A stretch of DNA of 64,000 bases from Nitrospirota bacterium (GTDB lineage Bacteria > Nitrospirota > Thermodesulfovibrionia > Thermodesulfovibrionales > Dissulfurispiraceae), in the NCBI GenBank assembly GCA_963790025.1, contig CAWBMP010000004.1, positions 1,216,001 through 1,280,000 on the forward strand, in the 5' to 3' direction. The position numbers and the translations under genes are program-made. This document shows positions 19,496 through 33,608 of the stretch, one piece after another; positions within the stretch are counted from its first letter, which is position 1; every line of letters starts with the position of its first letter. Below the pieces are notes generated by a model. The model searched no databases and was not told where the DNA came from. It saw nothing but the letters and a program-made list of their open reading frames with translations.

Positions 19496-19990
19496 TTATT
19501 CAGCCTTTATGGCAACTTTCTTTGTCGCCTTGACCGCCTTTTCCGATTTCGGCAATATTACCGTAAGCACTCCTTTTTTAAAGGTGGCGTCGATCTTCTC
19601 AGTTTGCACCTCAATGGGGAGGGGGATAGTCCTGCTGAAAGAACCGTAGGAACGTTCCATGCGGTAATAATCCTTTCCCTTGTCCTCTTTCTCTTCCTTC
19701 TTTTCGCCCTTAATCGTCAGCATGTCATTGCTCAGAGAGACCTCGATGTCCTTCTCATCCATTCCTGGAAGTTCTGCAGAGACCTTGATTTCTTTATCGC
19801 TTTCCGAAACATCGATGTTTGGTGCGAATGTGCCCAGCCTGCTCTCAAAAGGCTCTAATTCGAAACCCCTGAAGAAATTATCAAAGACCGAATTCATGTC
19901 CCTCTGCAAGAGTGCAAAGGGATTATCATCGCGACTTGCCGGACCGCGCTTCTTCCCGGATATAGAGGGCAAAAGGTTCCTGATCGCCAT
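19496..19990 (-). CDS. Hsp20/alpha-crystallin small heat shock protein
   Basis: AELPGM, ERSYGSFSRTIPLP, GVLTVILPK. Confidence 0.95.
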   Translation of the reverse strand: MAIRNLLPSISGKKRGPASRDDNPFALLQRDMNSVFDNFFRGFELEPFESRLGTFAPNIDVSESDKEIKVSAELPGMDEKDIEVSLSNDMLTIKGEKKEEKEDKGKDYYRMERSYGSFSRTIPLPIEVQTEKIDATFKKGVLTVILPKSEKAVKATKKVAIKAE

Positions 19991-20025
19991 AATAAGTACC
20001 TCCTTGTAGTTTGAAGGGTTAACAG

Positions 20026-20436
20026 TTATACTTCGGCCTTTACAGCTATTTTCCTTGTTTTTGCTGTTTCGGCCTTGGGTAAAACCAGCTTTAATACTCC
20101 GTTCTTCACCGAGGCCTGGATCTTTTCCCTGTCTATTTCATCCGTAAGGGTGAAAACCCTCTGGTAATCTCCTACTCCGTATTCGGCAAATGCAAGCCTG
20201 TGGTGCTCGGGCATTTCAGGCTCGACAGTGCCATAAATGGTGAGGACATTCTTATCCAATGTTATATCGACTGACTGCTCATCAACACCCGGCATGTCCG
20301 CGATTACCACAATATTATCCTTCCTTTCGATGATATCCACGGCAGGAGTGTACACTTTTGTCGAACGTGTCCGTTCCATTCCTGCTGGTGTTTCAGCCTC
20401 TTTTTTTTGCACTTCCTTTGCCCCCGTATCAGCCAT
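20026..20436 (-). CDS. Hsp20 small heat shock protein
   Basis: PAVDI, ADMPGV, NGVLKLVLPK. Confidence 0.95.
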   Translation of the reverse strand: MADTGAKEVQKKEAETPAGMERTRSTKVYTPAVDIIERKDNIVVIADMPGVDEQSVDITLDKNVLTIYGTVEPEMPEHHRLAFAEYGVGDYQRVFTLTDEIDREKIQASVKNGVLKLVLPKAETAKTRKIAVKAEV

Positions 20437-20454
20437 AATTAATACCCCCTTCTT

Positions 20455-20883
20455 TTATTCGGATTTAATAGTTATTCTCTTTGGTTTGTCCGCTTCTGCC
20501 CGTGGCAGGGATATGTAAAGCACACCCTTTCTGAACTTGGCCTCAACCTTCTCAGCATCAATTACAAAGGGAATTTCAAAGGTTTTACTGAACCTTCCGC
20601 GCCACCGCTCCCTGCGATGGTACGACTCTCCATCCTTTACATCTTCAGGCTCGCGCGAGCCCCGTACAGTAACAGACTTGCCCATAACCGAAATATCAAT
20701 GGTTCCTGCCTCAATCCCCGGCACCTCTGTGGTAACCATCGCATTGTCCGCTGCCAGCCAAACGTTAAACAACGGGAGTTCACTGGACGACACTTCGGGT
20801 CCTGAAAATACCCGGTTGAGCCGCTCCAGCTCGCTCCGCGGATCAATCAATCTGCCAAACCTTTCCCAATCTGTCCAAGCCAT
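20455..20883 (-). CDS. Hsp20 small heat shock protein
   Basis: EVPGI, YHRRER, GVLYISLPRAE. Confidence 0.95.
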   Translation of the reverse strand: MAWTDWERFGRLIDPRSELERLNRVFSGPEVSSSELPLFNVWLAADNAMVTTEVPGIEAGTIDISVMGKSVTVRGSREPEDVKDGESYHRRERWRGRFSKTFEIPFVIDAEKVEAKFRKGVLYISLPRAEADKPKRITIKSE

Positions 20884-21104
20884 AATCGGTCCCTCCTTTT
20901 TATACCGGCCTTCCAGGCCATAAAAACGATGCGCTTCATTAAATAGAGCTGAAGTTGCATTCCATAATTAAAGTTTACACCGCTTTTGAAAAATGTCAAA
21001 ACTGAGTCAAGCCATAAAGTTCAGAGTTATGCTTAAAAGATGTTTTCTAACCTCAATATTGCATCCTTCATGAATCTAAAGTATTATTTAACTAATCTAT
21101 TTCC

Positions 21105-23054
21105 ATGAAAAAGAACCTCACTCATAAGATTCTGGAAGACCACCTGGTGGAGGGTCAGTTGATACCCGGCAGTGAAATCGCCATCAAAATCGACCACACC
21201 CTGCTTCAGGACGCTACAGGGACGCTAGCCATGCTGGAATTCGAGGCACTGGGCCTTGACCGGGTGGCGGTGGAGTTGGCAACGCAATACGTCGACCACA
21301 ACCTCCTCCAGACGGACAACAAGAATGCTGACGACCATAAGTTCCTCCAGACGGCTTCTGCCCGGTATGGCATCCATTTCAGCAAGCCGGGCAACGGGGT
21401 TTCGCACCAGGTCCACATGGAGCGCTTCGGCGTTCCCGGCAAAACTCTTCTGGGCGCTGATAGTCATACCCCCGGGGCCGCAGGTGTCTCCATGCTGGGT
21501 ATCGGCGCGGGTGGTCTGGATGTGACCCTGGCAATGGCCGGCCATCCCTATTATCTCCCATGCCCCAAAGTGCTCGGGGTCAAGCTTATCGGGGAACTCC
21601 CGGACTGGGTGAGTGCCAAGGACGTGATTCTCGAGATGCTTTTCCGCTTCGGCGTCAAGGGGTGCGTGGGCAAGATCATCGAGTATTATGGTCCGGGAGT
21701 AAAATCTCTTTCAGCCACGTCCCGCGAGACAATAGGCAATATGGGCACCGAGACCGGTGCAACAACATCCATCTTCCCGTCCGATGAGAGGACGCGTGAG
21801 TATTTGACCGCCCAGGAACGGGGCGGTGCGTGGGTCGAGCTTTCCGCCGATCAGGATGCGGAGTACGATGAATATGCAGAGATCGACCTGTCAAGGCTCG
21901 AACCTCTCATTGCCCAACCATCGTCTCCGGGCAATGTGGTCCCGGTGCGCGAAGTGGCTGGGACGAAAGTGGACCAGGTGATAGTGGGCAGCAGCGTCAA
22001 CTCTTCATTCCGGGACCTCATGGTTACGGCAAAAATGCTTGAAGGCCGGCGCGTTCATCCTGAAACCAATTTCCATGTGAATCCCGGAAGCCGTCAGGTC
22101 ATCGAGAACGTTGCCCGGGCAGGCGGGTTAATGGCCTTCCTCTTGTCAGGTGTCCGTTTGCACGAGCCGGGCTGCCAGGGATGCATAGGCATGGGCCAGG
22201 CCCCGGGGACAGGAGAGGTGAGCCTCAGGACCTTCCCCAGAAACTTCCCCGGCAGGTCAGGTACCAAAGACGACAAGGTCTACCTATGCTCTCCTGAGAC
22301 GGCAACGGCTGCCGGCTTGAGAGGGGTCATCACGGACCCGCGGGACTTGGCAAAAGAAATGAAATATCCCAGGATCGAAGACCCGATAAAATACGCCATC
22401 GACGAGAAGTCAATCGTATTCCCGTCACAGGAACTGACAAAAACTGTTGCTGTAAGAGGGCCGAACATCAAGTCCCTGCCGGACCTTGAGCCTCTTCCCG
22501 AAACTATCGAGGCAGTAGTGGTGCTCAAGGTGGGGGACAACATATCGACTGATACAATCATGCCGGCAGGCAACAAAGTTCTGCCGCTGCGTTCGAATAT
22601 CCAGGCGATCAGCGAACATGTGTTTGAGCAAATGGACCCCGATTTTGCCGCAGCTTGCAGATCAAAGGGCACAGTGGTTGTGGTCGGCGGCGAGAATTAC
22701 GGCCAGGGGTCGAGCAGGGAGCACGCAGCGCTCGCCCCGCGTTATCTCGGGGTACGTGCAAAGATTGTGAAGACCTTTGCACGCATCCACAAGTCCAACC
22801 TCTGCAATTTCGGCATACTTCCTCTCACCTTTAAAGACCCGAATGACTACGATCGCCTGAATAAAAATTCGACGGTCCTGCTTCGAGATGTTCGTAAGCT
22901 GATTCAGAAAGGTGACCGGGAGATTCCGGTTGAGGTGGATGGGCATACCTTCATTACTGTCTTTGACGTGTCGGAGCGTCAGAGAAAGCATTTGCTGGCG
23001 GGCGGTACGCTGAATTTTGTAAGAAATGAATTAAAAGGTCAGGTAAACGCATAG
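21105..23054 (+). CDS. Aconitate hydratase (Aquifex/archaeal-type)
   Basis: QDATG, DSHT, CQGCIG, TFPRNF, ENYGQGSSREHAA. Confidence 0.93.
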   Translation: MKKNLTHKILEDHLVEGQLIPGSEIAIKIDHTLLQDATGTLAMLEFEALGLDRVAVELATQYVDHNLLQTDNKNADDHKFLQTASARYGIHFSKPGNGVSHQVHMERFGVPGKTLLGADSHTPGAAGVSMLGIGAGGLDVTLAMAGHPYYLPCPKVLGVKLIGELPDWVSAKDVILEMLFRFGVKGCVGKIIEYYGPGVKSLSATSRETIGNMGTETGATTSIFPSDERTREYLTAQERGGAWVELSADQDAEYDEYAEIDLSRLEPLIAQPSSPGNVVPVREVAGTKVDQVIVGSSVNSSFRDLMVTAKMLEGRRVHPETNFHVNPGSRQVIENVARAGGLMAFLLSGVRLHEPGCQGCIGMGQAPGTGEVSLRTFPRNFPGRSGTKDDKVYLCSPETATAAGLRGVITDPRDLAKEMKYPRIEDPIKYAIDEKSIVFPSQELTKTVAVRGPNIKSLPDLEPLPETIEAVVVLKVGDNISTDTIMPAGNKVLPLRSNIQAISEHVFEQMDPDFAAACRSKGTVVVVGGENYGQGSSREHAALAPRYLGVRAKIVKTFARIHKSNLCNFGILPLTFKDPNDYDRLNKNSTVLLRDVRKLIQKGDREIPVEVDGHTFITVFDVSERQRKHLLAGGTLNFVRNELKGQVNA

Positions 23055-23127
23055 GCAAAGGCAGAGTCTTATTTCTTTACTATGCCTCTACCTCTACCTT
23101 TGCTTTTCCTTTTTTTAGGAGGTGACT

Positions 23128-24324
23128 ATGAGTCAAGCAAGTAGCGAGGATGCTGCGCGGCTAAAGAATATCGGCCTGAGGGGTGTAAAGGTAGCCGACA
23201 CGAAAATCAGCGACGTAGATGGCGAACACGGAGTTCTCATCTACCGGGGATATCTCATCGAGGATCTGGCCCAGCACTCTACGTTTGAGGAAACGGCTTA
23301 TCTGCTTCTCTATGATGCGCTTCCTACGGACCAGCAACTGGAGGAATTCAGGGGCCGGCTGATCGAAGCAAGGAGTATGCCGGCGTTTATATTCAACAGT
23401 TTCAAACAACTTCCGACTGATGCCAGGCCTATGGACGTGCTCCAGGCATCCATCCCGCTCCTTGCAGCTGCTGATCCTGACCTGGAGTCGGAACCACGGG
23501 AAGCTAACATTGCCAGGGCCATTCGACTCATCGCGTACGTACCCGCCGTGGTAGCAGGCTGGGACCGGATACGGAAAGGCAATGAGCCTGTGCCGCCTGA
23601 TGAAACATTGTCCCATGCCGGGAATTTTTTATGGCAGCTCACCGGCAAACGACAAGATGCAGAGATTGCACGCGATCTCGATACGGCCCTGTTGCTTCAC
23701 GCAGACCATTCATTCAATGCCTCCACATTTGCATGCCGTGAAGTGGCATCCACACGGGCACACATGTATGCAGCAGTTGCAGCAGGAGTCGGCGCCCTTT
23801 CGGGCAGCCTCCACGGCGGCGCAAATGCGCAAGTAATGAAAATGCTTCTGGAACTCCGGGGCGAGAAGGACATTGCAGGATGGGTAAGAAGACAGTTGGA
23901 CGGCAAACGAAAGATCATGGGGATGGGCCACGCAGTATACAAGACGGTGGACCCGAGGGCCAGGTTCCTTAAGGATATGTGCTTAAGGCTGGGGAAAAAA
24001 CTCGGCGAGGAGCACTGGTGGAAGCTTTCAACCGGGATCGAAGAGAGTGCACTGGCCGAATTCGGGAAGCGGGGCAAGTCTACGATAAAACCGAATGTAG
24101 ACTTTTATAGCGCGCCCGTCTACCATATGATCGGGATACCTGAAGACCTGATGACGCCCGTTTTTGCCATAGCGCGGATTGCAGGCTGGACCGCGCATAT
24201 AATCGAAGAAAAATTCGCCGATGCCCAGGAAAAGCCGGCGCTCTATCGGCCGTCATCCGAGTATGTTGGCCATTACTGCGGCAGGACGGGCTGCGCTTAT
24301 ACCCAAATAAAGCAGAGACAGTGA
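23128..24324 (+). CDS. gltA: Citrate synthase
   Basis: HADHSFNASTF, GSLHGGAN, MGMGHAVYK, PNVDFYS. ATG 23128 follows SD AGGAGG (GTG 23122 is an alternative). Confidence 0.93.
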   Translation: MSQASSEDAARLKNIGLRGVKVADTKISDVDGEHGVLIYRGYLIEDLAQHSTFEETAYLLLYDALPTDQQLEEFRGRLIEARSMPAFIFNSFKQLPTDARPMDVLQASIPLLAAADPDLESEPREANIARAIRLIAYVPAVVAGWDRIRKGNEPVPPDETLSHAGNFLWQLTGKRQDAEIARDLDTALLLHADHSFNASTFACREVASTRAHMYAAVAAGVGALSGSLHGGANAQVMKMLLELRGEKDIAGWVRRQLDGKRKIMGMGHAVYKTVDPRARFLKDMCLRLGKKLGEEHWWKLSTGIEESALAEFGKRGKSTIKPNVDFYSAPVYHMIGIPEDLMTPVFAIARIAGWTAHIIEEKFADAQEKPALYRPSSEYVGHYCGRTGCAYTQIKQRQ

Positions 24325-24331
24325 GGACAAC

Positions 24332-25705
24332 GTGAAAACACAAAAGATAGAGTCAATCAATCCCTATACCGGAAAAGTAATGCAGGAATTTGATCTCATG
24401 ACAGAAAAGGAGATCACCGAAAAAATAACTCTGTCACGAAAAACATTTTCGACCTGGCGCACCATACCTGTCGCTGAGCGGACAAACTACGTGGGGAGGT
24501 TGGCCGGGCACCTCAGGGCGGAGAAACGGACGTATGCAGAACTGATGACGAAGGAAATGGGCAAGCCCATCAAGGAGTCGATGGGAGAGATCGAGAAGTG
24601 CGCATGGCTCTGCGATTACTATGCCGGAAATGCCTCAAAGTTCCTGGATACCGAGCACATCAAGACCGAGGCGGTTAAGAGTTACGTAATGTTCGAGCCG
24701 CTGGGCCTCGTCCTCGCGATCATGCCCTGGAACTTTCCCTTCTGGCAGGCGTTCCGATTCGGCATACCGGCGATCTGCGCGGGGAACGTTGTTGTCTTGA
24801 AACACGCATCCAATGTTCCTATGTCCGCCCTTGCCATAGAGGACGCGTTCAGGAATGCAGGGTTCCCGGAGCATGTGATGAAAACACTCCTCATCACCGC
24901 TGATGATGCACTCAAGCTTATTGATAAGGACCTGGTCGATGCCGTGTCATTGACAGGGAGCAACAGGGCCGGCGAGGCGGTCGGTGCCCTGGCAGGAGGG
25001 AAGATCAAAAAGCTCGTGCTGGAACTGGGCGGCTCCGACCCGTTCATTGTGCTTGACGATGCAGATGTCGCAAAAGCCGGCAGAATGGCTGCCAATGCCC
25101 GTACTATCAACGCTGGTCAGAGCTGCATAGCGGCAAAGCGCTTCATCGTCCATGAGAAAGTGGCCGTGGAGTTCAAGGAACACTTCGTCTCCCGCCTCAG
25201 GGAACTGAAGATCGGCGATCCCATGGATGAATCAACCGATATCGGCCCGGTCGCAAGGCAAGACATCCTCGAATCCCTGGAGGAGCAGCTTAGAGACGCC
25301 AGGGCAAAAGGCGCCGAAGTCCTGCAGACAGGGCCTTCACTAAAGCAAGGGCTTTTCTTTGCTCCCTGCGTAGTATATAATCCTGCGAAGAACATGAAGA
25401 TCATGACCGAAGAGATTTTCGGGCCCATTGCGCCGGTCATCATAGTTAGAGATGAGGACGAGGCGGTGAATGTTGCAAACGATACAGAGTTCGGTCTGGG
25501 TGCGTCCATCTGGAGCAGGGACCACGCCAGGGCGGAAAAACTCGCAGCTAGACTGGAGGCCGGGACCATAGCCATCAATGACATGGTTAAGTCCGACCCC
25601 CGCCTACCCTTCGGCGGCGTCAAGAAGTCCGGGTTCGGCCGGGAGCTGTCGCATTTCGGCCTGAGAGAGTTCGTGAACATCAAAAGTATTGTCGTGAGAG
25701 AGTAG
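24332..25705 (+). CDS. NAD(P)-dependent succinate-semialdehyde dehydrogenase
   Basis: IMPWNFPFWQ, LKHASNVP, LELGGSDP, NAGQSCIAAKR, EEIFGP, PFGGVKKSG. Confidence 0.9.
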   Translation: MKTQKIESINPYTGKVMQEFDLMTEKEITEKITLSRKTFSTWRTIPVAERTNYVGRLAGHLRAEKRTYAELMTKEMGKPIKESMGEIEKCAWLCDYYAGNASKFLDTEHIKTEAVKSYVMFEPLGLVLAIMPWNFPFWQAFRFGIPAICAGNVVVLKHASNVPMSALAIEDAFRNAGFPEHVMKTLLITADDALKLIDKDLVDAVSLTGSNRAGEAVGALAGGKIKKLVLELGGSDPFIVLDDADVAKAGRMAANARTINAGQSCIAAKRFIVHEKVAVEFKEHFVSRLRELKIGDPMDESTDIGPVARQDILESLEEQLRDARAKGAEVLQTGPSLKQGLFFAPCVVYNPAKNMKIMTEEIFGPIAPVIIVRDEDEAVNVANDTEFGLGASIWSRDHARAEKLAARLEAGTIAINDMVKSDPRLPFGGVKKSGFGRELSHFGLREFVNIKSIVVRE

Positions 25706-25707
25706 AG

Positions 25708-27342
25708 ATGAAGGCATCCGATCTGTTCGTGGCCCAACTCGAAGAAGAAGGCGTAGAATACATCTTCGGTCTGCCGGGCGAGGAGAACCTCGACTTTCTC
25801 GAATCCCTGCGCACCTCATCGATAAAAGTCATCATTACCCGTCACGAGCAATCAGCAGCGTTCATGGCCGCGACCTATGGAAGACTCACCGGGAAAGCCG
25901 GTGTCTGCTTCTCTACGCTCGGGCCCGGGGCGTTGAACCTCGTGACCGGCGTTGCCCATGCCCAGCTTATCGGTGCGCCCCTGGTTTCGATTTCAGGTCA
26001 GAAGGCGATCAGGGAGAACTGGCAGGCCAGGTTCCAGCTTGTCAATGTTGTGGAAGTAATGAGGCCGATCACCAAGGACTCGGTTTCCATCATAGATCCC
26101 GGCACCATACCTACCGTCTTACGGAATGCATTCAGGCTGGCACAGTCGGAACGACCGGGAGCAGTCCACCTGGAACTGCCTGTAGACGTGGCTGCCGGCC
26201 AAACAGATTCGCAGTTGCAGAAGCGGGGTTATACACGGAGACCCGCGCCTGATTACAAGGCCGTCACCAGGGCGGCCGAGCTGATCAATAAAGCGCGCCA
26301 CCCCCTGATCATTCTCTCGGCCGGGGCCAACAGGAACCTAGCAGCCAGGCAGTTAACGCGTTTCATAGAGAAGACAGGCATCTACGCGATACATACGCAG
26401 ATGGGAAAGGGCGTTCTGAGTGATGATTCGCCATACAGCCTCTTCGCTGCCGGCATCCACCGGCGCGATTACGTGAGTTGCGGGATCGACCAGGCCGACG
26501 TGATCATAACGATCGGATACAACATAGTTGAATATCCGCCGTATGTCTGGAACAGGGACCTCTCTAAGAAGATCATCAATATCGACTTCGCCGAGGCCCT
26601 CGCAGACAAATACTTCAATCCGGACATAGACGTTATAGGCGACATTGCCTGCTCGCTGAAGCAACTCGGTGAGGTGATCACCCCAAGGAAAAACGATGAG
26701 ATGTTCAGGGGCGTGCGGGAATTCCTTAATGGCAAACTATCGCTTGATTTCAAAAAACAGTATCCTCTGACCCCTCTCGAAGTCGTGCGGCATGTGCGGG
26801 AGGCCCTGCAACGCGAGGATGTCCTGACACTCGACAACGGAATTTACAAGCTGTGGTTTTCACGCCTCTACCCTGCTTACAGCCCCAACACATTCCTGTT
26901 GGATAATGCCCTGGCTACGATGGGAGCGGGCCTTTCAGCAGGCATCATGGCCAAGATGCTCAGGCCCAATCGAAACGTACTGGCCGTGGTGGGCGACGGC
27001 GGATTCATGATGACCTCCCACGAGCTTGAGACCGCCCTGCGATATAACGTCCCCCTCGTTGTCCTCGTCCTTAACGACAATGCCTTCGGTTTCATCAAAT
27101 GGGAGCAGCAGAGCAAGGGGTTCCCGAATTTTGCTCTCGATTATTCAAATCCTGATTTCGTGAAGTATGCCGAAAGCTTCGGGGCCGTTGGCATGAAGGT
27201 AAAAAAGGGAGATGATCTGTCCGACATCTTAGGCGGGGCGTTTGCACTGAAGAGAACCGTCCTTATCGAGTGCCCGGTCGATTATTCGGTCAACTTCGAG
27301 ATGTTCTCAAAAGAACTTGCGAACATAGTGTGCGAATACTGA
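25708..27342 (+). CDS. ThDP-dependent acetolactate-synthase-like enzyme, probable 2-oxoglutarate decarboxylase (OgdA-like)
   Basis: GVEYIFGLPGEENL, RHEQSAAFMA, LDNALATMGAG, GDGG...ND; directly downstream of SSADH. Confidence 0.75.
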   Translation: MKASDLFVAQLEEEGVEYIFGLPGEENLDFLESLRTSSIKVIITRHEQSAAFMAATYGRLTGKAGVCFSTLGPGALNLVTGVAHAQLIGAPLVSISGQKAIRENWQARFQLVNVVEVMRPITKDSVSIIDPGTIPTVLRNAFRLAQSERPGAVHLELPVDVAAGQTDSQLQKRGYTRRPAPDYKAVTRAAELINKARHPLIILSAGANRNLAARQLTRFIEKTGIYAIHTQMGKGVLSDDSPYSLFAAGIHRRDYVSCGIDQADVIITIGYNIVEYPPYVWNRDLSKKIINIDFAEALADKYFNPDIDVIGDIACSLKQLGEVITPRKNDEMFRGVREFLNGKLSLDFKKQYPLTPLEVVRHVREALQREDVLTLDNGIYKLWFSRLYPAYSPNTFLLDNALATMGAGLSAGIMAKMLRPNRNVLAVVGDGGFMMTSHELETALRYNVPLVVLVLNDNAFGFIKWEQQSKGFPNFALDYSNPDFVKYAESFGAVGMKVKKGDDLSDILGGAFALKRTVLIECPVDYSVNFEMFSKELANIVCEY

Positions 27343-27424
27343 GTCCAGAACACCTTATTTCTCGACACGGGACTACAAAAATTACTTTTGTGAAATATCT
27401 TTGATTTTATTGGACAAAAAAGAA

Positions 27425-27448
27425 TCGGGGCGAGCCGATTCGAACGGC
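27425..27448 (-). mobile_element. tRNA-Pro 3'-end fragment (att-site relic)
   Basis: Minus strand GCCGTTCGAATCGGCTCGCCCCGA is a T-arm plus the acceptor 3' strand CGCCCCG-A; no 5' half present. Confidence 0.7.
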
Positions 27449-27759
27449 AAGTCCATGCTATTTGCCTTTTACATTTCAAATAGTTAAACCTCCCATTCTC
27501 TCAGTACACCACCGAGAGTAAACGGAATTATCAACTCTAAAAACAATAAAAAAAGAAGTTTCAGTATTAGATGCGGCTGCAAAAATACTAAAGATCCTTA
27601 ATATTTTATTCAATTGAGTGAAAAGATTCACAGATTATGATCAGTCCGGTATGGCCTTCTTCCTCTCGTCATTTTATAATATTGTCTGGTATGCAATATT
27701 TCACGAAGAAATGCGTGTGCACGTAGAAATATTCTTGTATTTTTGTAATTTCTTATCTA

Positions 27760-28028: not shown

Positions 28029-29717
28029 ATGCGGGTGTCTATTTCTCGTGGGATCCTCCCTATCAAAGGATCGGAAGTGCCGACAGATATCATGGCCGGC
28101 CTCACGCTGGCTGCCCTTGCCATTCCGGAGGTCATGGGCTACACGAAGATCGCAGGCACTCCGGTGATCACCGGTCTTTACACAATCCTCATTCCCATGA
28201 CTCTTTTCGCGTTCTTCGGTTCATCCCGTCACCTGGTGGTGGGCGCTGACTCTGCCACTGCAGCCATTCTCGCTGGCACACTCACCGGGATGGCTGTGTC
28301 AGGGTCGGCTGAGTGGCTTGCACTGTCGGGCACCCTCGCGTTACTGTTGGCAGTTTTCCTGATCATCGCTTGTATCATTCGACTGGGGTTTCTTGCGGAT
28401 TTCCTGTCGCGCACCGTGCTGGTCGGCTTCCTGACAGGCGTCGGCGTTCAGGTCGCCGTCGGTGAGATTTCAGGCATGTTTGGTATTCCGGGGGGCGGAC
28501 ACAGTCCGGTCCACAAGATCATTATCGATCTTCAGCAGATCAACCAGATAAATTTTTACTCTTTGGCTGTCTCCATTACCGTGCTCGTGCTCATCGTCGG
28601 GTCAAAGAAGATCTCGAAAAAAATACCGGGTGCCCTGATGGCTGTGATTGGCGGCATCGCCGCCAACTCCTTGTTCAATCTTGAAGCTCACGGTGTACAT
28701 GTGCTGGGCAAAATTCCAGGAGGCCTGCCAAAGATCGGGCTGCCAGACGTCCTCTGGGAGAAGGGCCTTGTCTTGAAGTTGCTTCCGGCCGCCTTTTCGA
28801 TGTTTGTAGTCATTCTGGCCCAGAGCGCAGCTACCTCACGGGCTTACGCTTCCCGCTACAACGAGCGCGTTAGCGAAAATGTGGATTTGTTAGGTTTGGG
28901 CCTGGCCAACATAGGAGCTGCGTTATCCGGGACATTTGTAGTGAACGGAAGCCCTACCAAGACCCAGATGGTCGTCAGCGCCGGAGGACGCAGTCAGCTG
29001 GCGCAGCTTGCCACCAGCCTCATTGTCCTTCTCGTTCTGTTGTTCCTTACGGGTCCGCTGGCTAAGATGCCGAATGCCGTCCTTTCAGCAGTGGTTTTCC
29101 TGATTGGCGTCGAATTGATTGACATCAGGGGGATGAGTAATATCTGCATACAGCGCCCGTCGGAATTCTGGGTGGCGTTGATTACTGCCCTTGTGGTGAT
29201 CTTCATCGGCGTCGAGCAGGGCCTTATTCTTGCCATGGTGCTGTCACTTATGGAGCATGTGCGTCGGAGCTACCGGTCGAAAAACGACATAGTAGTGTCT
29301 GACAAGACGGGGGGCTGGCGCTTGCTGCCGGTAACTGAGCCGGAGCAAATGCGGCAGGGGCTTCTGGTGTATCGCTTTGCTCACACGATGTATTACGCTA
29401 ATGCGCAACAACTCTACGATCAGGTTGCCGACCTCTCGAACAGGGCACAGCCCCCGCTGGTCTGGTTCTGTATTGAGGCGGCGGCGGTGGCGGATGTGGA
29501 CTTCACCGCGGCATCAACCCTTCGTGATATCCACGGCATTTTGAAGAGGCAGGGGATCCGGCTTGTGTTTTGCAACGTAATCGACCTCGTCAAGGACGAG
29601 TTTGACAGATATGAGCTCACCGATCTGTTCGGTAATGACGCCTTCTACGGGAGCATCAATTCAGTAATAAGCGCATATGACAAGAGGTCGGATGGCTGCG
29701 AAGACAGAAAATTATAG
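28029..29717 (+). CDS. SulP/SLC26 anion transporter with STAS domain
   Basis: DIMAGLTLAALAIPEVMGY, GLYT, GSSRHL, YYANA, DVDFTA. Confidence 0.95.
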   Translation: MRVSISRGILPIKGSEVPTDIMAGLTLAALAIPEVMGYTKIAGTPVITGLYTILIPMTLFAFFGSSRHLVVGADSATAAILAGTLTGMAVSGSAEWLALSGTLALLLAVFLIIACIIRLGFLADFLSRTVLVGFLTGVGVQVAVGEISGMFGIPGGGHSPVHKIIIDLQQINQINFYSLAVSITVLVLIVGSKKISKKIPGALMAVIGGIAANSLFNLEAHGVHVLGKIPGGLPKIGLPDVLWEKGLVLKLLPAAFSMFVVILAQSAATSRAYASRYNERVSENVDLLGLGLANIGAALSGTFVVNGSPTKTQMVVSAGGRSQLAQLATSLIVLLVLLFLTGPLAKMPNAVLSAVVFLIGVELIDIRGMSNICIQRPSEFWVALITALVVIFIGVEQGLILAMVLSLMEHVRRSYRSKNDIVVSDKTGGWRLLPVTEPEQMRQGLLVYRFAHTMYYANAQQLYDQVADLSNRAQPPLVWFCIEAAAVADVDFTAASTLRDIHGILKRQGIRLVFCNVIDLVKDEFDRYELTDLFGNDAFYGSINSVISAYDKRSDGCEDRKL

Positions 29718-29907: not shown

Positions 29908-30684
29908 TTACTGGACAGGGATCTGCTGAGGTTTTTCGATTTTCGTCCAGTACGCCTCCTTGATCTTCCCGGCCAGCATATCGATGTCGGCAGGCTTGTT
30001 GACGAAATCAAAGGCGCCGAGCTTTGCCGCCTCCTCCCTGTCGCCCTTGGTCTCCCTTCCAGAGAGCATGATAACCTGCATGGCGGGGGAGGATTGTTTT
30101 ACCCTCCTCAGCACCTCAATTCCATCCATCCCCGGCATTCTCAAATCCAGGATCATGATGTCCGGCTTCTCTCTTTGGACAAAACCAATCGTCTCCTCTC
30201 CGCTCGTCGCAACATCTGTCTTCAGGTTCCTCAGGTTCAGCCTCTTTGCAAGAGAGGTCACAAATTCGACCTCGTCATCGACAAGAAGAATCTTGAAGGT
30301 CGAGAAATCGCTTGGGACAATGGAGACACGGCACGGAGCGCGCCTCCCGATTTCTGCATACTTTTCAGGAATGAGGATCATCTCGATCCTATTTTCCTTT
30401 GCGTACTTGACAAACTCTTCCTCGGGAATGCCATCCATGGTGGTGAAGCTCACTCTTATCCCTTTCCCCACTTCAGCAATGATCTTCTCCGCTTCAGACA
30501 GGTAATAGGAAAGCTCACGTCGTGCGGTTTCCTCAGCGTTGGACCCTGCATACTCTGCAATAAGGGCACTGTTGAGCACATGAATGACGTGAAGCTCACC
30601 GCCCGTCGTCTTCGCCCTGAACAATCCATACCTCACAACGTCCTTCGAATTCAACGTGCCATCATAGACCGCCAATATCCTCAT
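29908..30684 (-). CDS. Universal stress protein-response regulator receiver fusion
   Basis: N-terminal ILAVYDG...APCRV (USP) plus C-terminal ILLVDDE...LDLRMPG...NKPAD (REC). Confidence 0.88.
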   Translation of the reverse strand: MRILAVYDGTLNSKDVVRYGLFRAKTTGGELHVIHVLNSALIAEYAGSNAEETARRELSYYLSEAEKIIAEVGKGIRVSFTTMDGIPEEEFVKYAKENRIEMILIPEKYAEIGRRAPCRVSIVPSDFSTFKILLVDDEVEFVTSLAKRLNLRNLKTDVATSGEETIGFVQREKPDIMILDLRMPGMDGIEVLRRVKQSSPAMQVIMLSGRETKGDREEAAKLGAFDFVNKPADIDMLAGKIKEAYWTKIEKPQQIPVQ

Positions 30685-30778
30685 GTCAACCTCCTTTAAA
30701 CGCCGTTATATGCCAAATACAAGCACTTCTTTATGAAAACAGCAATTGATTTAGCTTAAAAGCTCTCATTCTTTTCTT

Positions 30779-31444
30779 TTAAATGGCGGCTCCGGTATTG
30801 AGAATAATCACCGCTTCGCCATTTGCGCCCTGTTGGTCAAGGGTCCCGAACAGTTCCCTGCATACTTCGTTGATCGCTTCGACCCTATGATAATCTCCCT
30901 GTCCTGACAACTCCTTCATAGTTCCGTTCGGGACGATCGCAATTCTTATAGTATTATTTGCAGATGAGGTCCTCACGGTAATAGAGCCGCCTTTTTCGAA
31001 ACAATCCATCATCTCTTCAATAATAAAGAAGATGAGCAACTGAAGCATGGACGGGTTGCTGTGAATTAATGATATGTCCCGTTCGAAATCTTTCGTGAAC
31101 TCGACCCTTTTTTGGTAGGCATGTCTCGCCATCAAGGCAACAAGCTCCTCGACAATCTCGTTCACGCTAAAGGAAGAGCATTCGGAGTCCATCCTGTGGG
31201 CAAACCGGTTAAGGAAACCGATCAACTGAAGACCCCTCTCGATCTGGGAGTCGACCGATCGGAGGAACTTGTGAAGTTCGGCAATATCAGGCTTCTTGCT
31301 CATGGAGAGCAAGTCCTGCTGCAGACCGCCCGACTCCTTGATGATTGCAAGATGATTTTTTAATTCATGAGTGAATCCCGCAATGATCCTCCCGATGAAC
31401 CTGAACCGCAACTCCCTCATGCCGGCCGGGCCGTTGTCTCCCAT
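30779..31444 (-). CDS. Sensorless histidine-kinase-like protein (HisKA with degenerate ATPase domain)
   Basis: THELKNHLAIIKE; N/G boxes degenerate. Confidence 0.8.
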   Translation of the reverse strand: MGDNGPAGMRELRFRFIGRIIAGFTHELKNHLAIIKESGGLQQDLLSMSKKPDIAELHKFLRSVDSQIERGLQLIGFLNRFAHRMDSECSSFSVNEIVEELVALMARHAYQKRVEFTKDFERDISLIHSNPSMLQLLIFFIIEEMMDCFEKGGSITVRTSSANNTIRIAIVPNGTMKELSGQGDYHRVEAINEVCRELFGTLDQQGANGEAVIILNTGAAI

Positions 31445-31827
31445 TAGACCTCCTTTTCGGATTTATTGCTCTTTGCGTTGTCGATCTTCACTACAAGGTT
31501 CTCAATGTCCACTGGCTTCATGATGCAGTCGAACGCCCCGCTCTCCATCCCCTCGGTGCTTTCCTCGGAGGCCCCGAGCCCAGTCAGCATAATGACTTGG
31601 ATGGATGGGTTGAATTGCTTGATCGTTTTGAGCGCCTCGATGCCGCTCGTGCCCGGCATTCTCAAGTCGAGGAGCATGACATCCGGAGGATCGTTCCTCG
31701 AAAAGGAAATGGCGTCCTCAGCGCAATAGACCGACTTTGCATTGTATCCCCTTATTTGCAGACGTTCCGCAAGCGTTGAAGCGAATTCCATCTCATCATC
31801 AACAATAAGCACCTTTGTCTGCACCAT
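31444..31827 (-). CDS. Single-domain response regulator
   Basis: VLIVDDE, LDLRMPG, MKPVD. Confidence 0.93.
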   Translation of the reverse strand: MVQTKVLIVDDEMEFASTLAERLQIRGYNAKSVYCAEDAISFSRNDPPDVMLLDLRMPGTSGIEALKTIKQFNPSIQVIMLTGLGASEESTEGMESGAFDCIMKPVDIENLVVKIDNAKSNKSEKEV

Positions 31828-31838
31828 AAAACCTCCGT

Positions 31839-33608
31839 TTACCCAATCTCCTTGTGGACGGGTATCTCAATCAAAAACAATGTTCCCTTCCCCTCCTCGG
31901 TCTCCACTGTTATCGTCCCCCCGAGTCTGGTTATGATGCCGTAGGATATGGAGAGACCGAGACCCGTCCCTTTTCCTTTCTCTTTTGTCGTGTAGAATGG
32001 CTCGAATATATGCTTCAGTACATCCCTGGGCATACCGGGACCATCATCTTTTATGGTGACGCGTACTGTATCTTTGTCCTTAAGCTCGGTCCCTACGTCA
32101 ATCAGCCCTCCGTTTTTAACGGCGTCAACGGCATTGTTGATAATATTCAGAAACACCTGCTGGAGCTGTCCCTTATCGCTCAGCACCAGCGGAATGTTAT
32201 CTCCGAGATGCACGTAAAGGCGGACATTTCTATATAGCATCTCCCGCTCGACGAACCCCAGGACCTCCGTTATCGTTTCATTGATATCAGTCTCCATCGG
32301 TGTAACGTCCATCCTCCTGGCAAATCCCAGGAGGCGATGGGTGATCGTTCTGCAGCGGTTCAGACTGTCGGAAATCCCTTTTATCTGAGCAATGAAATTC
32401 TCCTTGTTGGGAAAGTCCCCTGACATCCCGAGGATATCTTTCATAAGTCCTGCTTTCTCATTGATGATCGCCAGAGGGTTGTTGATCTCATGCGCAACGC
32501 CGGCTGCAAGCCTACCGATTGACGCGAGCTTCCCGGCGTGCTCTGTCTCGGCGATCGCTTCCTCCCTCTTTTGCTCCGCCTCCCTGATCCAGTTCACCGC
32601 GGTGAAGGATATGCGCAGGTTTACGATGATACCGATCACGATGAGCGCCCCGATAAGATAAATCACCCCGAGCCCGCTTCGGAAAATTCCGAAGAGCTTT
32701 GAATATGCCGTCGACTTTATGACGACGCCCAGGAACCATGGGGAGTTCCGTATCGGGGCATACCCCAGGATGAAGCGGCTCTGATCGGCCACTATCATTT
32801 CGGTAAGAAAAACCCGCTGTTGGGGTACCGGCATAGGCAGAACGACCTTTTCAAGCACGCGGCCATGGGACCGCGAAGGGGTTTGAAGGGTCCCTTCCCG
32901 ATTGATAATGAACGCATCGTCGTCCTGCTTGATATTGATTGTCGACAAATACCTGTGCAGCGTCTCAATATCGATCGTGGCCCTCAGAATCCAGAAAGTA
33001 TCTTTCCCGGGGATCTCTCTCCGTACCGCTATCGCGAAATGAGGGATCTTACGATATCCCATGAAGACTTCGCTGATGTAGACCCCCCTCACCGTAGCCT
33101 CATTAAACCAGTCCTGGCCTGAATAATCTTTCCCCTGGAGCTGGTACGGGCCTGCATACGAGCGCTGGATACCTTTTGCATCGATTACTCCGAGGTCGAC
33201 AAGCTCTCCGAATTCATTCTTGAAATTGACAAACAGGGAATAAAGCACTTTCTTATCGGACACCTGGTCGTAGGTGTAGGTCGCCGAAAGGAACCGAAGG
33301 ACAGCGAGTTTCTCTTCCAGGAGGAACCCTACGGATTGTGAGGTGCTCTCCAGCTGCCACTTAACCTGATTGTTGATGTCTTCTTTCACATTGTTTTTCA
33401 GCCAGAGAAAACTGGCGATTGTGACGATGATGAGCGGGACGCCGGCGAGCATACCGATGAGCAGAAATATCTTGATCTTGAGGCTTTTGTACGTGTCTTT
33501 CGTCAGGAGCGAGGTGGGTTTGTCGCCCATATCGCGAAAGCGAAAGACTTTACAACAACCGACAACCCATTCCTTTATTTTTCCTGCAAACTGACGGGGC
33601 TTCGACAT
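31839..33608 (-). CDS. Cache-domain sensor histidine kinase (NtrB-like)
   Basis: AGVAHEINNPL, NIINNAVDA, DDGPG, GTGLGL. Confidence 0.93.
   Translation of the reverse strand: MSKPRQFAGKIKEWVVGCCKVFRFRDMGDKPTSLLTKDTYKSLKIKIFLLIGMLAGVPLIIVTIASFLWLKNNVKEDINNQVKWQLESTSQSVGFLLEEKLAVLRFLSATYTYDQVSDKKVLYSLFVNFKNEFGELVDLGVIDAKGIQRSYAGPYQLQGKDYSGQDWFNEATVRGVYISEVFMGYRKIPHFAIAVRREIPGKDTFWILRATIDIETLHRYLSTINIKQDDDAFIINREGTLQTPSRSHGRVLEKVVLPMPVPQQRVFLTEMIVADQSRFILGYAPIRNSPWFLGVVIKSTAYSKLFGIFRSGLGVIYLIGALIVIGIIVNLRISFTAVNWIREAEQKREEAIAETEHAGKLASIGRLAAGVAHEINNPLAIINEKAGLMKDILGMSGDFPNKENFIAQIKGISDSLNRCRTITHRLLGFARRMDVTPMETDINETITEVLGFVEREMLYRNVRLYVHLGDNIPLVLSDKGQLQQVFLNIINNAVDAVKNGGLIDVGTELKDKDTVRVTIKDDGPGMPRDVLKHIFEPFYTTKEKGKGTGLGLSISYGIITRLGGTITVETEEGKGTLFLIEIPVHKEIG

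Follow-up and report, generated by a model that had tools for sequence, protein, structure and literature searches.

A tricarboxylic acid cycle operon of a Nitrospirota bacterium with a candidate 2-oxoglutarate decarboxylase and a cyanobacterial-type succinic semialdehyde dehydrogenase

Does a non-phototrophic bacterium carry, among its core tricarboxylic acid (TCA) cycle genes, the bypass from 2-oxoglutarate to succinate that is known from cyanobacteria? The question is raised by a 64,000-nucleotide stretch of a Nitrospirota genome, referred to here as the window, in which genes for aconitase (acn) and citrate synthase (CS) are followed by genes for an aldehyde dehydrogenase (ALDH) and a thiamine diphosphate (ThDP) enzyme. 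The original prediction read these genes as a TCA operon holding the OgdA and SsaD bypass that Zhang and Bryant reportedly described in cyanobacteria in 2011. Judging from sequence and genomic setting, we put the probability that the operon is a 2-oxoglutarate decarboxylase/succinic semialdehyde dehydrogenase (SSADH) bypass within the oxidative TCA branch at roughly 60%. It is probably a variant of the known pathway, with a thiamine enzyme on the branch next to the cyanobacterial one.

The proposed route would begin with citrate synthase and aconitase, which would form isocitrate, and an NADP-isocitrate dehydrogenase, which is encoded elsewhere in the genome, would convert this to 2-oxoglutarate. 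The ThDP enzyme would then carry out a non-oxidative decarboxylation to succinic semialdehyde, and the coupled SsaD would turn the semialdehyde into succinate with NADP+. Such a route would proceed without CoA or ferredoxin, skipping 2-oxoglutarate dehydrogenase or 2-oxoglutarate:ferredoxin oxidoreductase as well as succinyl-CoA synthetase.

Positions 21105-27342 hold four co-directional genes in the order acn-CS-ssaD-ThDP:

21105..23054, plus strand, aconitate hydratase of the ~650-aa PRK07229 type, at the head of the operon (NF005558, 951.6 bits, cut-off 612; PF00330 and PF00694 also match)
23122..24324, plus strand, citrate synthase of the type II/2-methylcitrate-synthase-like family (PF00285, 423.9 bits; TIGR01800, 414.1 bits)
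24332..25705, plus strand, ssaD, succinic semialdehyde dehydrogenase, NADP-type and like that of cyanobacteria (PF00171, 468.5 bits)
25708..27342, plus strand, ThDP enzyme of the PRK08322 family, clade X, a candidate 2-oxoglutarate decarboxylase (NF006187, 763.2 bits, cut-off 509)

Read from the sequence, these coordinates and the gaps of 7 nt (CS-ALDH) and 2 nt (ALDH-ThDP) agree with the tight linkage first described. Between acn and CS there are 67 nt if CS begins with the GTG at 23122, or 74 nt if it begins with the ATG at 23129; the latter, which is preceded by AGGAGG, is probably the citrate synthase start. On the evidence of the 2-nt gap, ssaD and the ThDP gene are translationally coupled, and the four genes would be transcribed together. 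A sigma-70 scan of the gap upstream of acn (20884-21104) found nothing promoter-like on the plus strand.

The four-gene order recurs in seven of eight examined relatives from the same family and in 10/11 examined genomes of a family (f19) from a different class of the same phylum, so the linkage is not due to chance, and the operon reading of the original prediction is borne out. In all eight orthologue loci of the own family the ssaD gene immediately precedes the ThDP gene, as it does in 28 of 29 loci from f19, where the remaining one has just 319 nt of upstream sequence. Flanking genes differ among genomes, and across 19 loci the constant part is the four genes themselves; neither icd nor sucCD was found adjoining the cluster at any of the 19. 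Distant members of the ThDP family in the phylum (42-56% identity, eight regions) showed no ALDH or TCA neighbours in the sequence available around them, which for three of the eight reaches too little way upstream for a judgement. The module seems to have been transferred laterally between the two classes, and composition, phylogeny and patchy distribution suggest that it was laterally acquired. A SulP/DauA-like transporter gene downstream (28029-29717) was considered as the module's succinate exporter and rejected, since relatives do not share its position next to the cluster.

The citrate synthase raises the idea that the cluster serves propionate metabolism of the methylcitrate type, with the CS-like gene encoding 2-methylcitrate synthase, the aconitase acting as the isomerase, and the ThDP/ALDH pair working on pyruvate or another product. 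The best model, TIGR01800, takes in 2-methylcitrate synthases as well as citrate synthase II, its score for this protein falls just below the cut-off of 421.3, and a propionate/acetate-CoA ligase-like gene adjoins sucCD elsewhere in the genome, away from the operon. We consider this scheme very improbable, as neither a prpB- nor a prpD-like gene occurs in the cluster, whose constant part is limited to the four genes, and the ALDH is specifically SsaD-like.

The identity of this ALDH speaks for the bypass reading. Its top PDB matches are the SSADH structures 3vz1, 4it9 and 3vz3 at 458 bits, compared with 391/385 bits for Sad/YneI and 269 bits for the GabD-type SSADH 3jz4. According to the accessible text of PMC7510979, 3VZ3 is the SSADH of Synechococcus PCC 7002, and the same text gives the roles of the catalytic, substrate-binding and NADP residues. 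Nine of the nine residues named there (W130, N131, W135, R139, K154, S157, E228, C262 and S419, in that paper's numbering; add 3 for the window protein) are kept. In an alignment to 3vz1_A, the segments GQSCIAAKRF, LELGGSDPF and MPWNFPFWQ, which carry the catalytic Cys262, Glu228 and Asn131, are identical, as is the LKHAS motif with the NADP+ determinants Lys154 and Ser157. Arg139, Trp135 and Ser419, reported in the same text to bind the carboxylate of succinic semialdehyde, are all conserved.

A related-locus search with an OgdA-type alignment recovered 18 cyanobacterial loci, and in 14 of them an ALDH 47-49% identical to the window protein is encoded directly upstream of ogdA on the same strand. 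The best NCBIfam model is NF006915 for the window and cyanobacterial proteins alike; the window SsaD scores 533.6 bits against a cut-off of 730, and since the cyanobacterial SsaD beside ogdA (645.5 bits) also falls short, the cut-off is stricter than the subfamily. By these sequence comparisons the ALDH is a cyanobacterial-type SsaD, and the SSADH assignment of the original prediction stands.

What could supply its substrate? In this genome, which is 98.8% complete, we found no sucA, no group-II decarboxylase/glutamate decarboxylase (GAD) and no GabT above the cut-off (best 251 bits, compared with 506). This leaves decarboxylation of 2-oxoglutarate by the adjacent ThDP enzyme as the one evident source of succinic semialdehyde.

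The ThDP enzyme has the three expected domains (PF02776, PF00205 and PF02775). Its close homologues are annotated as acetolactate synthase large subunit, the best NCBIfam model (NF006187) bears that name, and the nearest solved structures, 13bb_A and AlsS, were deposited under it. One might accordingly take it for an acetolactate synthase, either catabolic or anabolic and free of a small subunit, with the TCA genes as incidental neighbours. The name is generic, however: an OgdA orthologue from cyanobacteria reaches a still higher score with the same PRK08322 model (875.6 bits), and the label therefore carries no weight. The AlsS models NF006378 (443.3 bits, cut-off 510) and TIGR02418 (415.4 bits, cut-off 551) and the IlvB model TIGR00118 (357.5 bits, cut-off 538) all fall below their thresholds, and bona fide AlsS representatives group in a clade of their own (100% support), the window enzyme lying outside both the AlsS and IlvB clades.

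Proteins of the AlsS kind (B. subtilis and K. pneumoniae; 4rjj, 1ozf) share the superfamily, a similar length and the lack of a small subunit, and they rank second among the groups of solved relatives (302-351 bits); they differ in carrying the signature FVSHQY[LM]Q where the window enzyme has HNIYKFFE, and the genome has no match to alsD (PF03306). The IlvB/IlvN synthases share the ThDP fold and its three domains, whereas identity to the genome's own IlvB is 30%. As the original prediction noted, no small subunit is encoded nearby; a canonical ilvB-ilvN pair, with the only ilvN of the genome, lies on another contig (C3). Acetolactate is moreover not an ALDH substrate, yet ssaD is coupled to the ThDP gene throughout the loci counted above. 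For Sll1981, overexpression cut isobutanol five-fold, which the authors, in the accessible part of PMC6158846, read as 2-oxoglutarate decarboxylase (KGD) rather than AlsS activity. By family scores, tree and context, then, the enzyme is neither AlsS nor IlvB, and an acetolactate synthase here seems to us quite unlikely.

Decarboxylation of 2-oxoglutarate is a more delicate matter. The original prediction placed the enzyme in the OgdA subgroup by its N-terminus. The N-terminal GVEYIFGLPGEENL is indeed present, but the PGEE(N/T) motif is common to the whole PRK08322 family, clades X and Y included, and so is not diagnostic of OgdA. Phylogeny, proposed as a check, separates the enzyme from AlsS and IlvB and also sets it outside the cyanobacterial OgdA clade. 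An IQ-TREE analysis of 55 rows places it in clade X (SH-aLRT 99) and the cyanobacterial proteins in a separate clade (support 98-99), and FastTree with 148 rows gives the same split. A tree constrained to unite the window group with the cyanobacterial clade is worse by 213.7 log-likelihood units and is rejected (AU test, p-AU 1.4e-39; the group was chosen once the tree had been seen). Identity to cyanobacterial OgdA is 40-43%.

The predicted pocket differs as well. Docking into a model of the Microcystis enzyme MaKGD, as given in the accessible text of PMC10418658, named V382, A408, L467, Q254, K386 and K471 as 2-oxoglutarate contacts. Two of these six, A408 and K386, are kept; the others are changed (Q254H, V382N, L467F and K471E, which are H251, N377, F462 and E466 in the window enzyme), K471E being a charge reversal at a site where two relatives have K. 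Ten of the 17 MaKGD residues reported there are retained, mostly cofactor binders, and the ThDP cofactor residues E50, GDGG, D462 and M410 are conserved. Cyanobacterial OgdA proteins from loci with an upstream ssaD carry 14-17 of the 17 residues of this assayed enzyme. The HKESHQ loop of the OgdA-type clade is replaced by NWQARFQ.

The genome also encodes a second PRK08322 protein (C4:1665480-1667090), which is 48-52% identical to cyanobacterial OgdA and has five of eight OgdA signature residues, compared with one of eight in the window enzyme; it has no ALDH neighbour, and by sequence it could be the genome's real OgdA. Given the separate clade, the two of six contacts and the closer paralogue, we infer 2-oxoglutarate decarboxylation by the operon enzyme from its context and not from orthology.

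These observations favor an alternative in which the enzyme acts on a different 2-oxo acid, as a decarboxylase or carboligase (for example on another dicarboxylic acid or one specific to clade X), while the SsaD-like enzyme oxidizes the product or merely shares the operon and the paralogue is the true 2-oxoglutarate decarboxylase. Varied chemistry in the family is hinted at by PRK08322 members paired or fused with other ALDH types, lactaldehyde-dehydrogenase-like (P0176, L088, L107) or GabD-like (L057). Several features pull the other way. The partner ALDH retains all the residues with which the solved cyanobacterial enzyme binds succinic semialdehyde, ThDP chemistry yields succinic semialdehyde solely from 2-oxoglutarate, and the genes stay linked to those for citrate synthase and aconitase in both classes. 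Of the 37 f19 genomes that gave a match, 27 have the operon-type enzyme as the sole family member at E <= 1e-100, and the MaKGD contacts, as the accessible text describes them, come from docking into a model and not from a structure. We regard a different substrate as unlikely, though as an alternative that carries real weight.

Clade X contains two natural ThDP-ALDH fusion proteins, P0123 (52% identical to the window enzyme) and P0176, which shows that enzymes of the clade feed aldehyde dehydrogenases; the ALDH part of P0123 is unclassified and about 29% identical to the window SsaD. Our literature search found no assayed member of clade X. The best solved relative, 13bb_A (558 aa, 382 bits), is known by its deposited name, 'acetolactate synthase'; it shares the clade-X signature residues N377 and I379 and has H/M in place of Y380/K381 of the window enzyme.

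The reference systems for the bypass reading are the cyanobacterial OgdA/KGD and SsaD pairs, namely A2770/A2771 of Synechococcus sp. PCC 7002, Sll1981 of Synechocystis and MaKGD (MAE_06010) of Microcystis, as described in the accessible portions of PMC10418658, PMC5160925, PMC7510979 and PMC6158846. Like them, the window locus pairs a PRK08322 ThDP enzyme that has kept its cofactor residues with an upstream SsaD-type SSADH of identical active site, and the predicted net reaction is the same, 2-oxoglutarate to succinate. Unlike them, it has a ThDP enzyme of another clade with a remodelled predicted pocket, and the pair sits inside an acn-gltA operon of a non-phototrophic host with dsrAB.

Use of the bypass outside cyanobacteria is not new, as the accessible text of PMC9751133 already proposed that OgdA/SSADH replaces 2-oxoglutarate dehydrogenase in Thiomicrorhabdus and other Gammaproteobacteria. 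The gammaproteobacterial loci examined here have OgdA-type genes, with the signature QVAHKYL(K/H) that sets them apart from the window enzyme, and downstream rather than upstream ALDH genes, whose products are just 26-34% identical to the window SsaD. A literature search on 2-oxoglutarate decarboxylase in Nitrospirota (including Thermodesulfovibrio and Magnetobacterium) and in Desulfobacterota, which had most subscription journals outside its reach, returned no description of the operon, and papers containing both 'oxoglutarate decarboxylase' and 'Nitrospir' did so in unrelated contexts in their accessible parts.

The host was expected to be non-cyanobacterial and probably anaerobic, and its gene content agrees: the genome bears dsrAB (sulfite reductase) and several 2-oxoacid:ferredoxin oxidoreductases and lacks sucA. 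A look for sucAB and korAB, suggested along with the original prediction, turned up no sucA and six POR_N matches. Two of the matches belong to PorCDAB-like sets that score below the PorA cut-offs, two are IOR-like proteins, one is a PFOR of 1200 aa, and one is a VorB-like alpha subunit with no recognizable beta subunit adjacent. The two PorABCD-like enzymes could be 2-oxoglutarate:ferredoxin oxidoreductases, and since sucCD and an sdhA/frdA homologue are also present, the bypass may be redundant. Its physiological role may be that of an oxygen-insensitive, NADPH-yielding route in a dsr-bearing anaerobe.

We tentatively extend this to a broader picture, which we hold to be possible, if somewhat short of even odds. 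Clade X may be a second, separately specialized lineage of 2-oxoacid decarboxylases with a rebuilt pocket, which in Nitrospirota recruited a cyanobacterial-type SsaD and joined acn-gltA as a laterally moving cassette for the oxidative TCA half-cycle, giving dsr-bearing anaerobes a CoA- and ferredoxin-free, oxygen-tolerant path from 2-oxoglutarate to succinate.

If the enzyme does decarboxylate 2-oxoglutarate, metabolic reconstructions of sulfur-cycling Nitrospirota that name the gene 'acetolactate synthase' would be wrong and would overlook an entire oxidative path leading from acetyl-CoA to succinate, one that avoids oxygen-sensitive ferredoxin oxidoreductase. The activity would then extend beyond the cyanobacterial-type clade and offer a second active-site solution for engineering succinate, 4-hydroxybutyrate or 1,4-butanediol. 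With another substrate, clade X would instead be a large enzyme family linked to aldehyde dehydrogenases. As the pathway concept is already known, the advance is incremental either way.

Two short features follow the operon, in a window with no whole tRNA (ARAGORN) and no Rfam family:

27446..27466, plus strand, terminator-like hairpin with T-run about 100 nt past the ThDP stop codon, a weak consensus match only
27417..27448, minus strand, att-like relic, 32 nt that duplicate the 3' end of a tRNA and its trailer

Terminator-like sites are about as frequent in shuffled sequence (7.0 +/- 2.7, compared with 10 in the region), so the hairpin is not significant alone. The att relic that had been noted beside the operon is real as a sequence feature, lying directly downstream of it. 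The 32-nt copy was absent from the loci of all 19 relatives searched. It matches exactly the 3' end of a complete tRNA located at about position 667690 of the same contig (G000:C4), some 576 kb away.

In cyanobacteria the OgdA/SsaD bypass is well established, and PMC5160925 terms ogdA and ssaD an operon. We identified four co-directional genes at window positions 21105-27342 as a predicted variant of this known pathway.

Genes of the operon (window coordinates)
21105-23054, + strand, aconitase (NF005558, 951.6 bits; cut-off 612)
23122-24324, + strand, citrate synthase (PF00285, 423.9 bits; TIGR01800, 414.1 bits, slightly below the cut-off of 421.3)
24332-25705, + strand, aldehyde dehydrogenase (ALDH, ssaD; PF00171, 468.5 bits)
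25708-27342, + strand, ThDP enzyme with three domains (NF006187/PRK08322, 763.2 bits; cut-off 509)

Open reading frames, profile matches and intergenic gaps of 7 nt (citrate synthase stop to ALDH start) and 2 nt (ALDH stop to ThDP start) bear out every coordinate of the four-gene operon in the original prediction. The citrate synthase start is more probably the ATG at 23129, which is preceded by AGGAGG. Upstream and divergent lie three tandem Hsp20/alpha-crystallin genes (164, 136 and 142 aa; 19496-20883, - strand), and a SulP-family transporter gene follows about 690 nt downstream of the operon. A signalling cluster at 29908-33608 (- strand) comprises a Usp-receiver fusion, a stand-alone receiver, a dCache histidine kinase and a 221-aa histidine-kinase-like open reading frame without a Pfam match at the threshold used.

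Among solved structures, the top matches of the window ALDH are the succinic semialdehyde dehydrogenases (SSADHs) 3vz1, 4it9, 3vz2 and 3vz3 (454-458 bits), compared with 385-392 bits for Sad/YneI-type SSADH and 269 bits for GabD-type SSADH (3jz4). PMC7510979 describes 3VZ3 as the Synechococcus PCC 7002 SSADH with NADP+ and succinic semialdehyde, and names SSADH catalytic residues (Cys262, Glu228, Asn131), binders of the substrate carboxylate (Arg139, Trp135, Ser419) and NADP determinants (Lys154, Ser157). All of the residues named there are kept in the window ALDH, in aligned segments that are identical or residue-conserving. In our species-genome collection, 14 of 18 cyanobacterial loci carry an ALDH 47-49% identical to the window's upstream of the OgdA gene and on the same strand, the same ssaD-then-ThDP order as in the window. 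NF006915 is the best NCBIfam model for both a cyanobacterial SsaD and the window ALDH, with both scoring below its cut-off, and a 74%-identical SsaD is present in a genome of a Nitrospirota bacterium. The closest structures, the kept residues and the identity to ogdA-linked cyanobacterial ALDHs uphold the earlier SSADH claim and identify the gene product as a cyanobacterial-type SsaD.

The ThDP enzyme is a member of the PRK08322 family but not an OgdA orthologue, belonging to a distinct group, clade X. The family name of PRK08322, 'acetolactate synthase large subunit', is no evidence of function, because this model gives 875.6 bits to a cyanobacterial OgdA orthologue from a Merismopediaceae locus. 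For the window enzyme, neither the AlsS models (443 vs 510 and 415 vs 551) nor the IlvB model (357 vs 538) reach their cut-offs; the canonical ilvB-ilvN pair of the genome lies on a different contig from the operon, and no alsD was found in the genome. In a FastTree phylogeny of 148 rows, PRK08322-type sequences split into two signature groups: the OgdA type (QVAHKYLK), with cyanobacteria, a Methanoperedens-named cluster and many Proteobacteria, and clade X (N-x-[ILM]-Y-K), which includes the window enzyme. An IQ-TREE analysis of 55 rows (LG+C20 PMSF, quick search) gave SH-aLRT support of 99% each to clade X and the cyanobacterial clade and 100% each to AlsS and IlvB, with the backbone joining the OgdA-type lineages and clade X weakly resolved at 80-89%. 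Constraining the window clade together with the cyanobacteria, a group named post hoc with the tree already seen, changed the log-likelihood by -213.7 units (p-AU 1.4e-39).

The scores, the location of ilvB-ilvN elsewhere and the separate AlsS and IlvB clades indicate that this enzyme is neither IlvB nor AlsS, in line with the original prediction, which saw no ilvH small subunit. Its placement in the OgdA subgroup does not hold, given the 99% support for clade X and the rejection by the AU test of a join with the cyanobacteria; the phylogeny that had been proposed as a check thus sets the enzyme apart from AlsS and IlvB, but also from cyanobacterial OgdA. The N-terminal motif behind that placement is truly present, although not diagnostic of OgdA. 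GLPGEENL is carried by 9/11 cyanobacterial and 9/33 clade-X rows. PGEE(N/T) is common to both groups, in contrast to PGAK or PGAS in most AlsS-like rows and YPGG in IlvB, so the motif marks the PRK08322 family rather than OgdA.

Kinetics and strict specificity are given for MaKGD, the assayed Microcystis 2-oxoglutarate decarboxylase, and for ScKGD in PMC10418658, together with 17 numbered MaKGD residues; according to that paper, soluble MaKGD required a plasmid supplying the trigger-factor chaperone. The 18 cyanobacterial proteins keep 14-17 of these 17 at one constant offset, which links their loci to the assayed MaKGD without need of its own sequence. The window ThDP enzyme keeps 10 of the 17, most of which belong to the cofactor site (E50, the GDGG motif, D462, M410, Y531). 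Only A408 and K386 are kept among the six residues placed at 2-oxoglutarate by docking, the changed contacts being Q254 to H, V382 to N, L467 to F and K471 to E. By similarity alone, the better OgdA candidate is a second PRK08322 member in the same genome (G000:C4:1665480-1667090; locus L002:1501-3123; 721 bits). This paralogue is 48-52% identical to cyanobacterial OgdA and keeps five of eight OgdA signature residues, whereas the operon enzyme is 40-43% identical and keeps one of eight. Its neighbours encode an RND efflux permease (pump) and a GGDEF-EAL protein, no ALDH gene lies close by, and its relatives are named Nitrospiraceae or Nitrospirota.

We favour the operon ThDP enzyme as a putative 2-oxoglutarate decarboxylase feeding SsaD. 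Its coupled partner is an SSADH, and to our knowledge succinic semialdehyde can be obtained by ThDP chemistry only from 2-oxoglutarate, which favours the latter as substrate. The coupling itself is old and strict and argues for the same reading: ssaD lies immediately upstream of the ThDP gene in all eight orthologue loci from Dissulfurispiraceae relatives and in 28 of 29 loci from f19, a family in another class of the phylum, the 29th locus ending 319 nt upstream. Further favouring a 2-oxoglutarate substrate, the complete four-gene order is kept in 7/8 fetched Dissulfurispiraceae regions (the exception, which comes from a different genus, lacks citrate synthase in the 1.5 kb available) and in 10/11 f19 regions (the eleventh has an aconitase-like fragment of 70 residues only). 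In two genus mates among the seven, at loci L110 (genome G007) and L115 (genome G003), the cassette aconitase match is split into two or three pieces, reflecting either frameshifts or assembly errors. Two natural ThDP-ALDH fusions in clade X, P0123 (1016 aa; ThDP part 52% identical to the window enzyme) and P0176 (1019 aa), indicate that clade X enzymes pass aldehydes to dehydrogenases and add to the case; the ALDH domains of these fusions differ in type from the window SsaD and share about 30% identity with it. Another PRK08322 family protein, P0129 (677 aa), is an OgdA-signature ThDP enzyme fused to a C-terminal cyclic-nucleotide-binding domain. The ThDP reading frame at locus L159 (G142:C42:1-6000) runs on upstream for 1078 aa in the direction of ssaD; since tblastn puts the two genes about 100 nt apart, the extension is probably open-frame read-through, not a fusion.

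The gene content of the genome, which is 98.8% complete, bears on the same question. Neither a group-II decarboxylase nor a GabT match above cut-off was found in it, so there is no evident path from GABA to succinic semialdehyde, and this, along with the absence of sucA, favours the 2-oxoglutarate reading. So does the finding that the operon-type enzyme is the sole match at E <= 1e-100 in 27 of 37 matching f19 genomes, which are MAGs in which absence is not proof. In our view, the pathway logic of the original prediction, a putative bypass from 2-oxoglutarate to succinate, was right. The genome also encodes sucCD and an sdhA/frdA homologue; an NADP-isocitrate dehydrogenase gene lies on a contig other than the operon's, and icd is found within the cluster at none of 19 loci. 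A search for sucAB or korAB, suggested earlier, found no sucA and six POR_N-containing oxidoreductases. The bypass may therefore replace, or run alongside, a 2-oxoglutarate:ferredoxin oxidoreductase. One VorB-like 2-oxoacid:ferredoxin oxidoreductase alpha subunit (G000:C2:324965-326008; locus L116:3966-5009; NF005507, 532 bits) stands without an identifiable gene for a beta or gamma subunit beside it.

A dsrA match above cut-off, a dsrB-like neighbour and a cytochrome bd oxidase mark the host as a sulfur-cycling organism, either anaerobic or microaerotolerant. Close homologues of its ThDP enzyme are named Nitrospirota, Dissulfurispiraceae, Deltaproteobacteria and Syntrophaceae. Matches at E <= 1e-100 occur in 61 of 201 genomes of the phylum sample, including 37 of 44 from f19 and none of 13 from the other Dissulfurispiraceae genera sampled; a separate search found the gene in the host's genus and in two other Dissulfurispiraceae genera. 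In the IQ-TREE phylogeny, the window enzyme nests among f19 sequences, to which it is 80-83% identical, compared with 57-59% for the window's housekeeping PurA in the same genomes (one marker only); this PurA is 84% identical to that of a genus mate and 70% to that of a family mate. At 54.7%, the GC content of the operon exceeds the genome mean of 47.4%, and only 0.64% of 1713 equal-length windows reach that value. A 32-nt stretch 75 nt downstream (27417-27448, - strand) duplicates the 3' end and trailer of a tRNA; it is identical to the end of a complete tRNA located about 576 kb from it on this contig. Taken together, the distribution, the nesting within f19, the PurA contrast and the GC content indicate that the four-gene module was transferred laterally, and these sequence features suggest a laterally mobile cassette. 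The att relic proposed beside the operon is real as a tRNA 3' fragment, but it is absent from 19/19 relatives' loci, and it is perhaps, though not necessarily, related to the module's transfer.

An OgdA/SSADH bypass has been proposed for Thiomicrorhabdus in PMC9751133. Our literature search found no published description of an acn-CS-ssaD-ThDP operon in Nitrospirota. Related gene pairs in anaerobes were reportedly already pointed out by Zhang and Bryant in 2011. Compared with the cyanobacterial bypass, the window SsaD is of the same type, whereas the ThDP enzyme falls in a different clade. The present analysis adds a candidate ThDP partner from outside the OgdA clade, its coexistence with a closer OgdA-like paralogue and the apparent mobility of the cassette. 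Near OgdA-signature ThDP genes, 21 of 62 non-cyanobacterial loci (e.g., L035, L042, L047, L057, L088 and L107) have an ALDH of another type, mostly directly downstream and 26-34% identical to the window SsaD. The three classifiable neighbours are GabD-like or lactaldehyde-DH-like, and the pattern looks like non-orthologous replacement of the partner.
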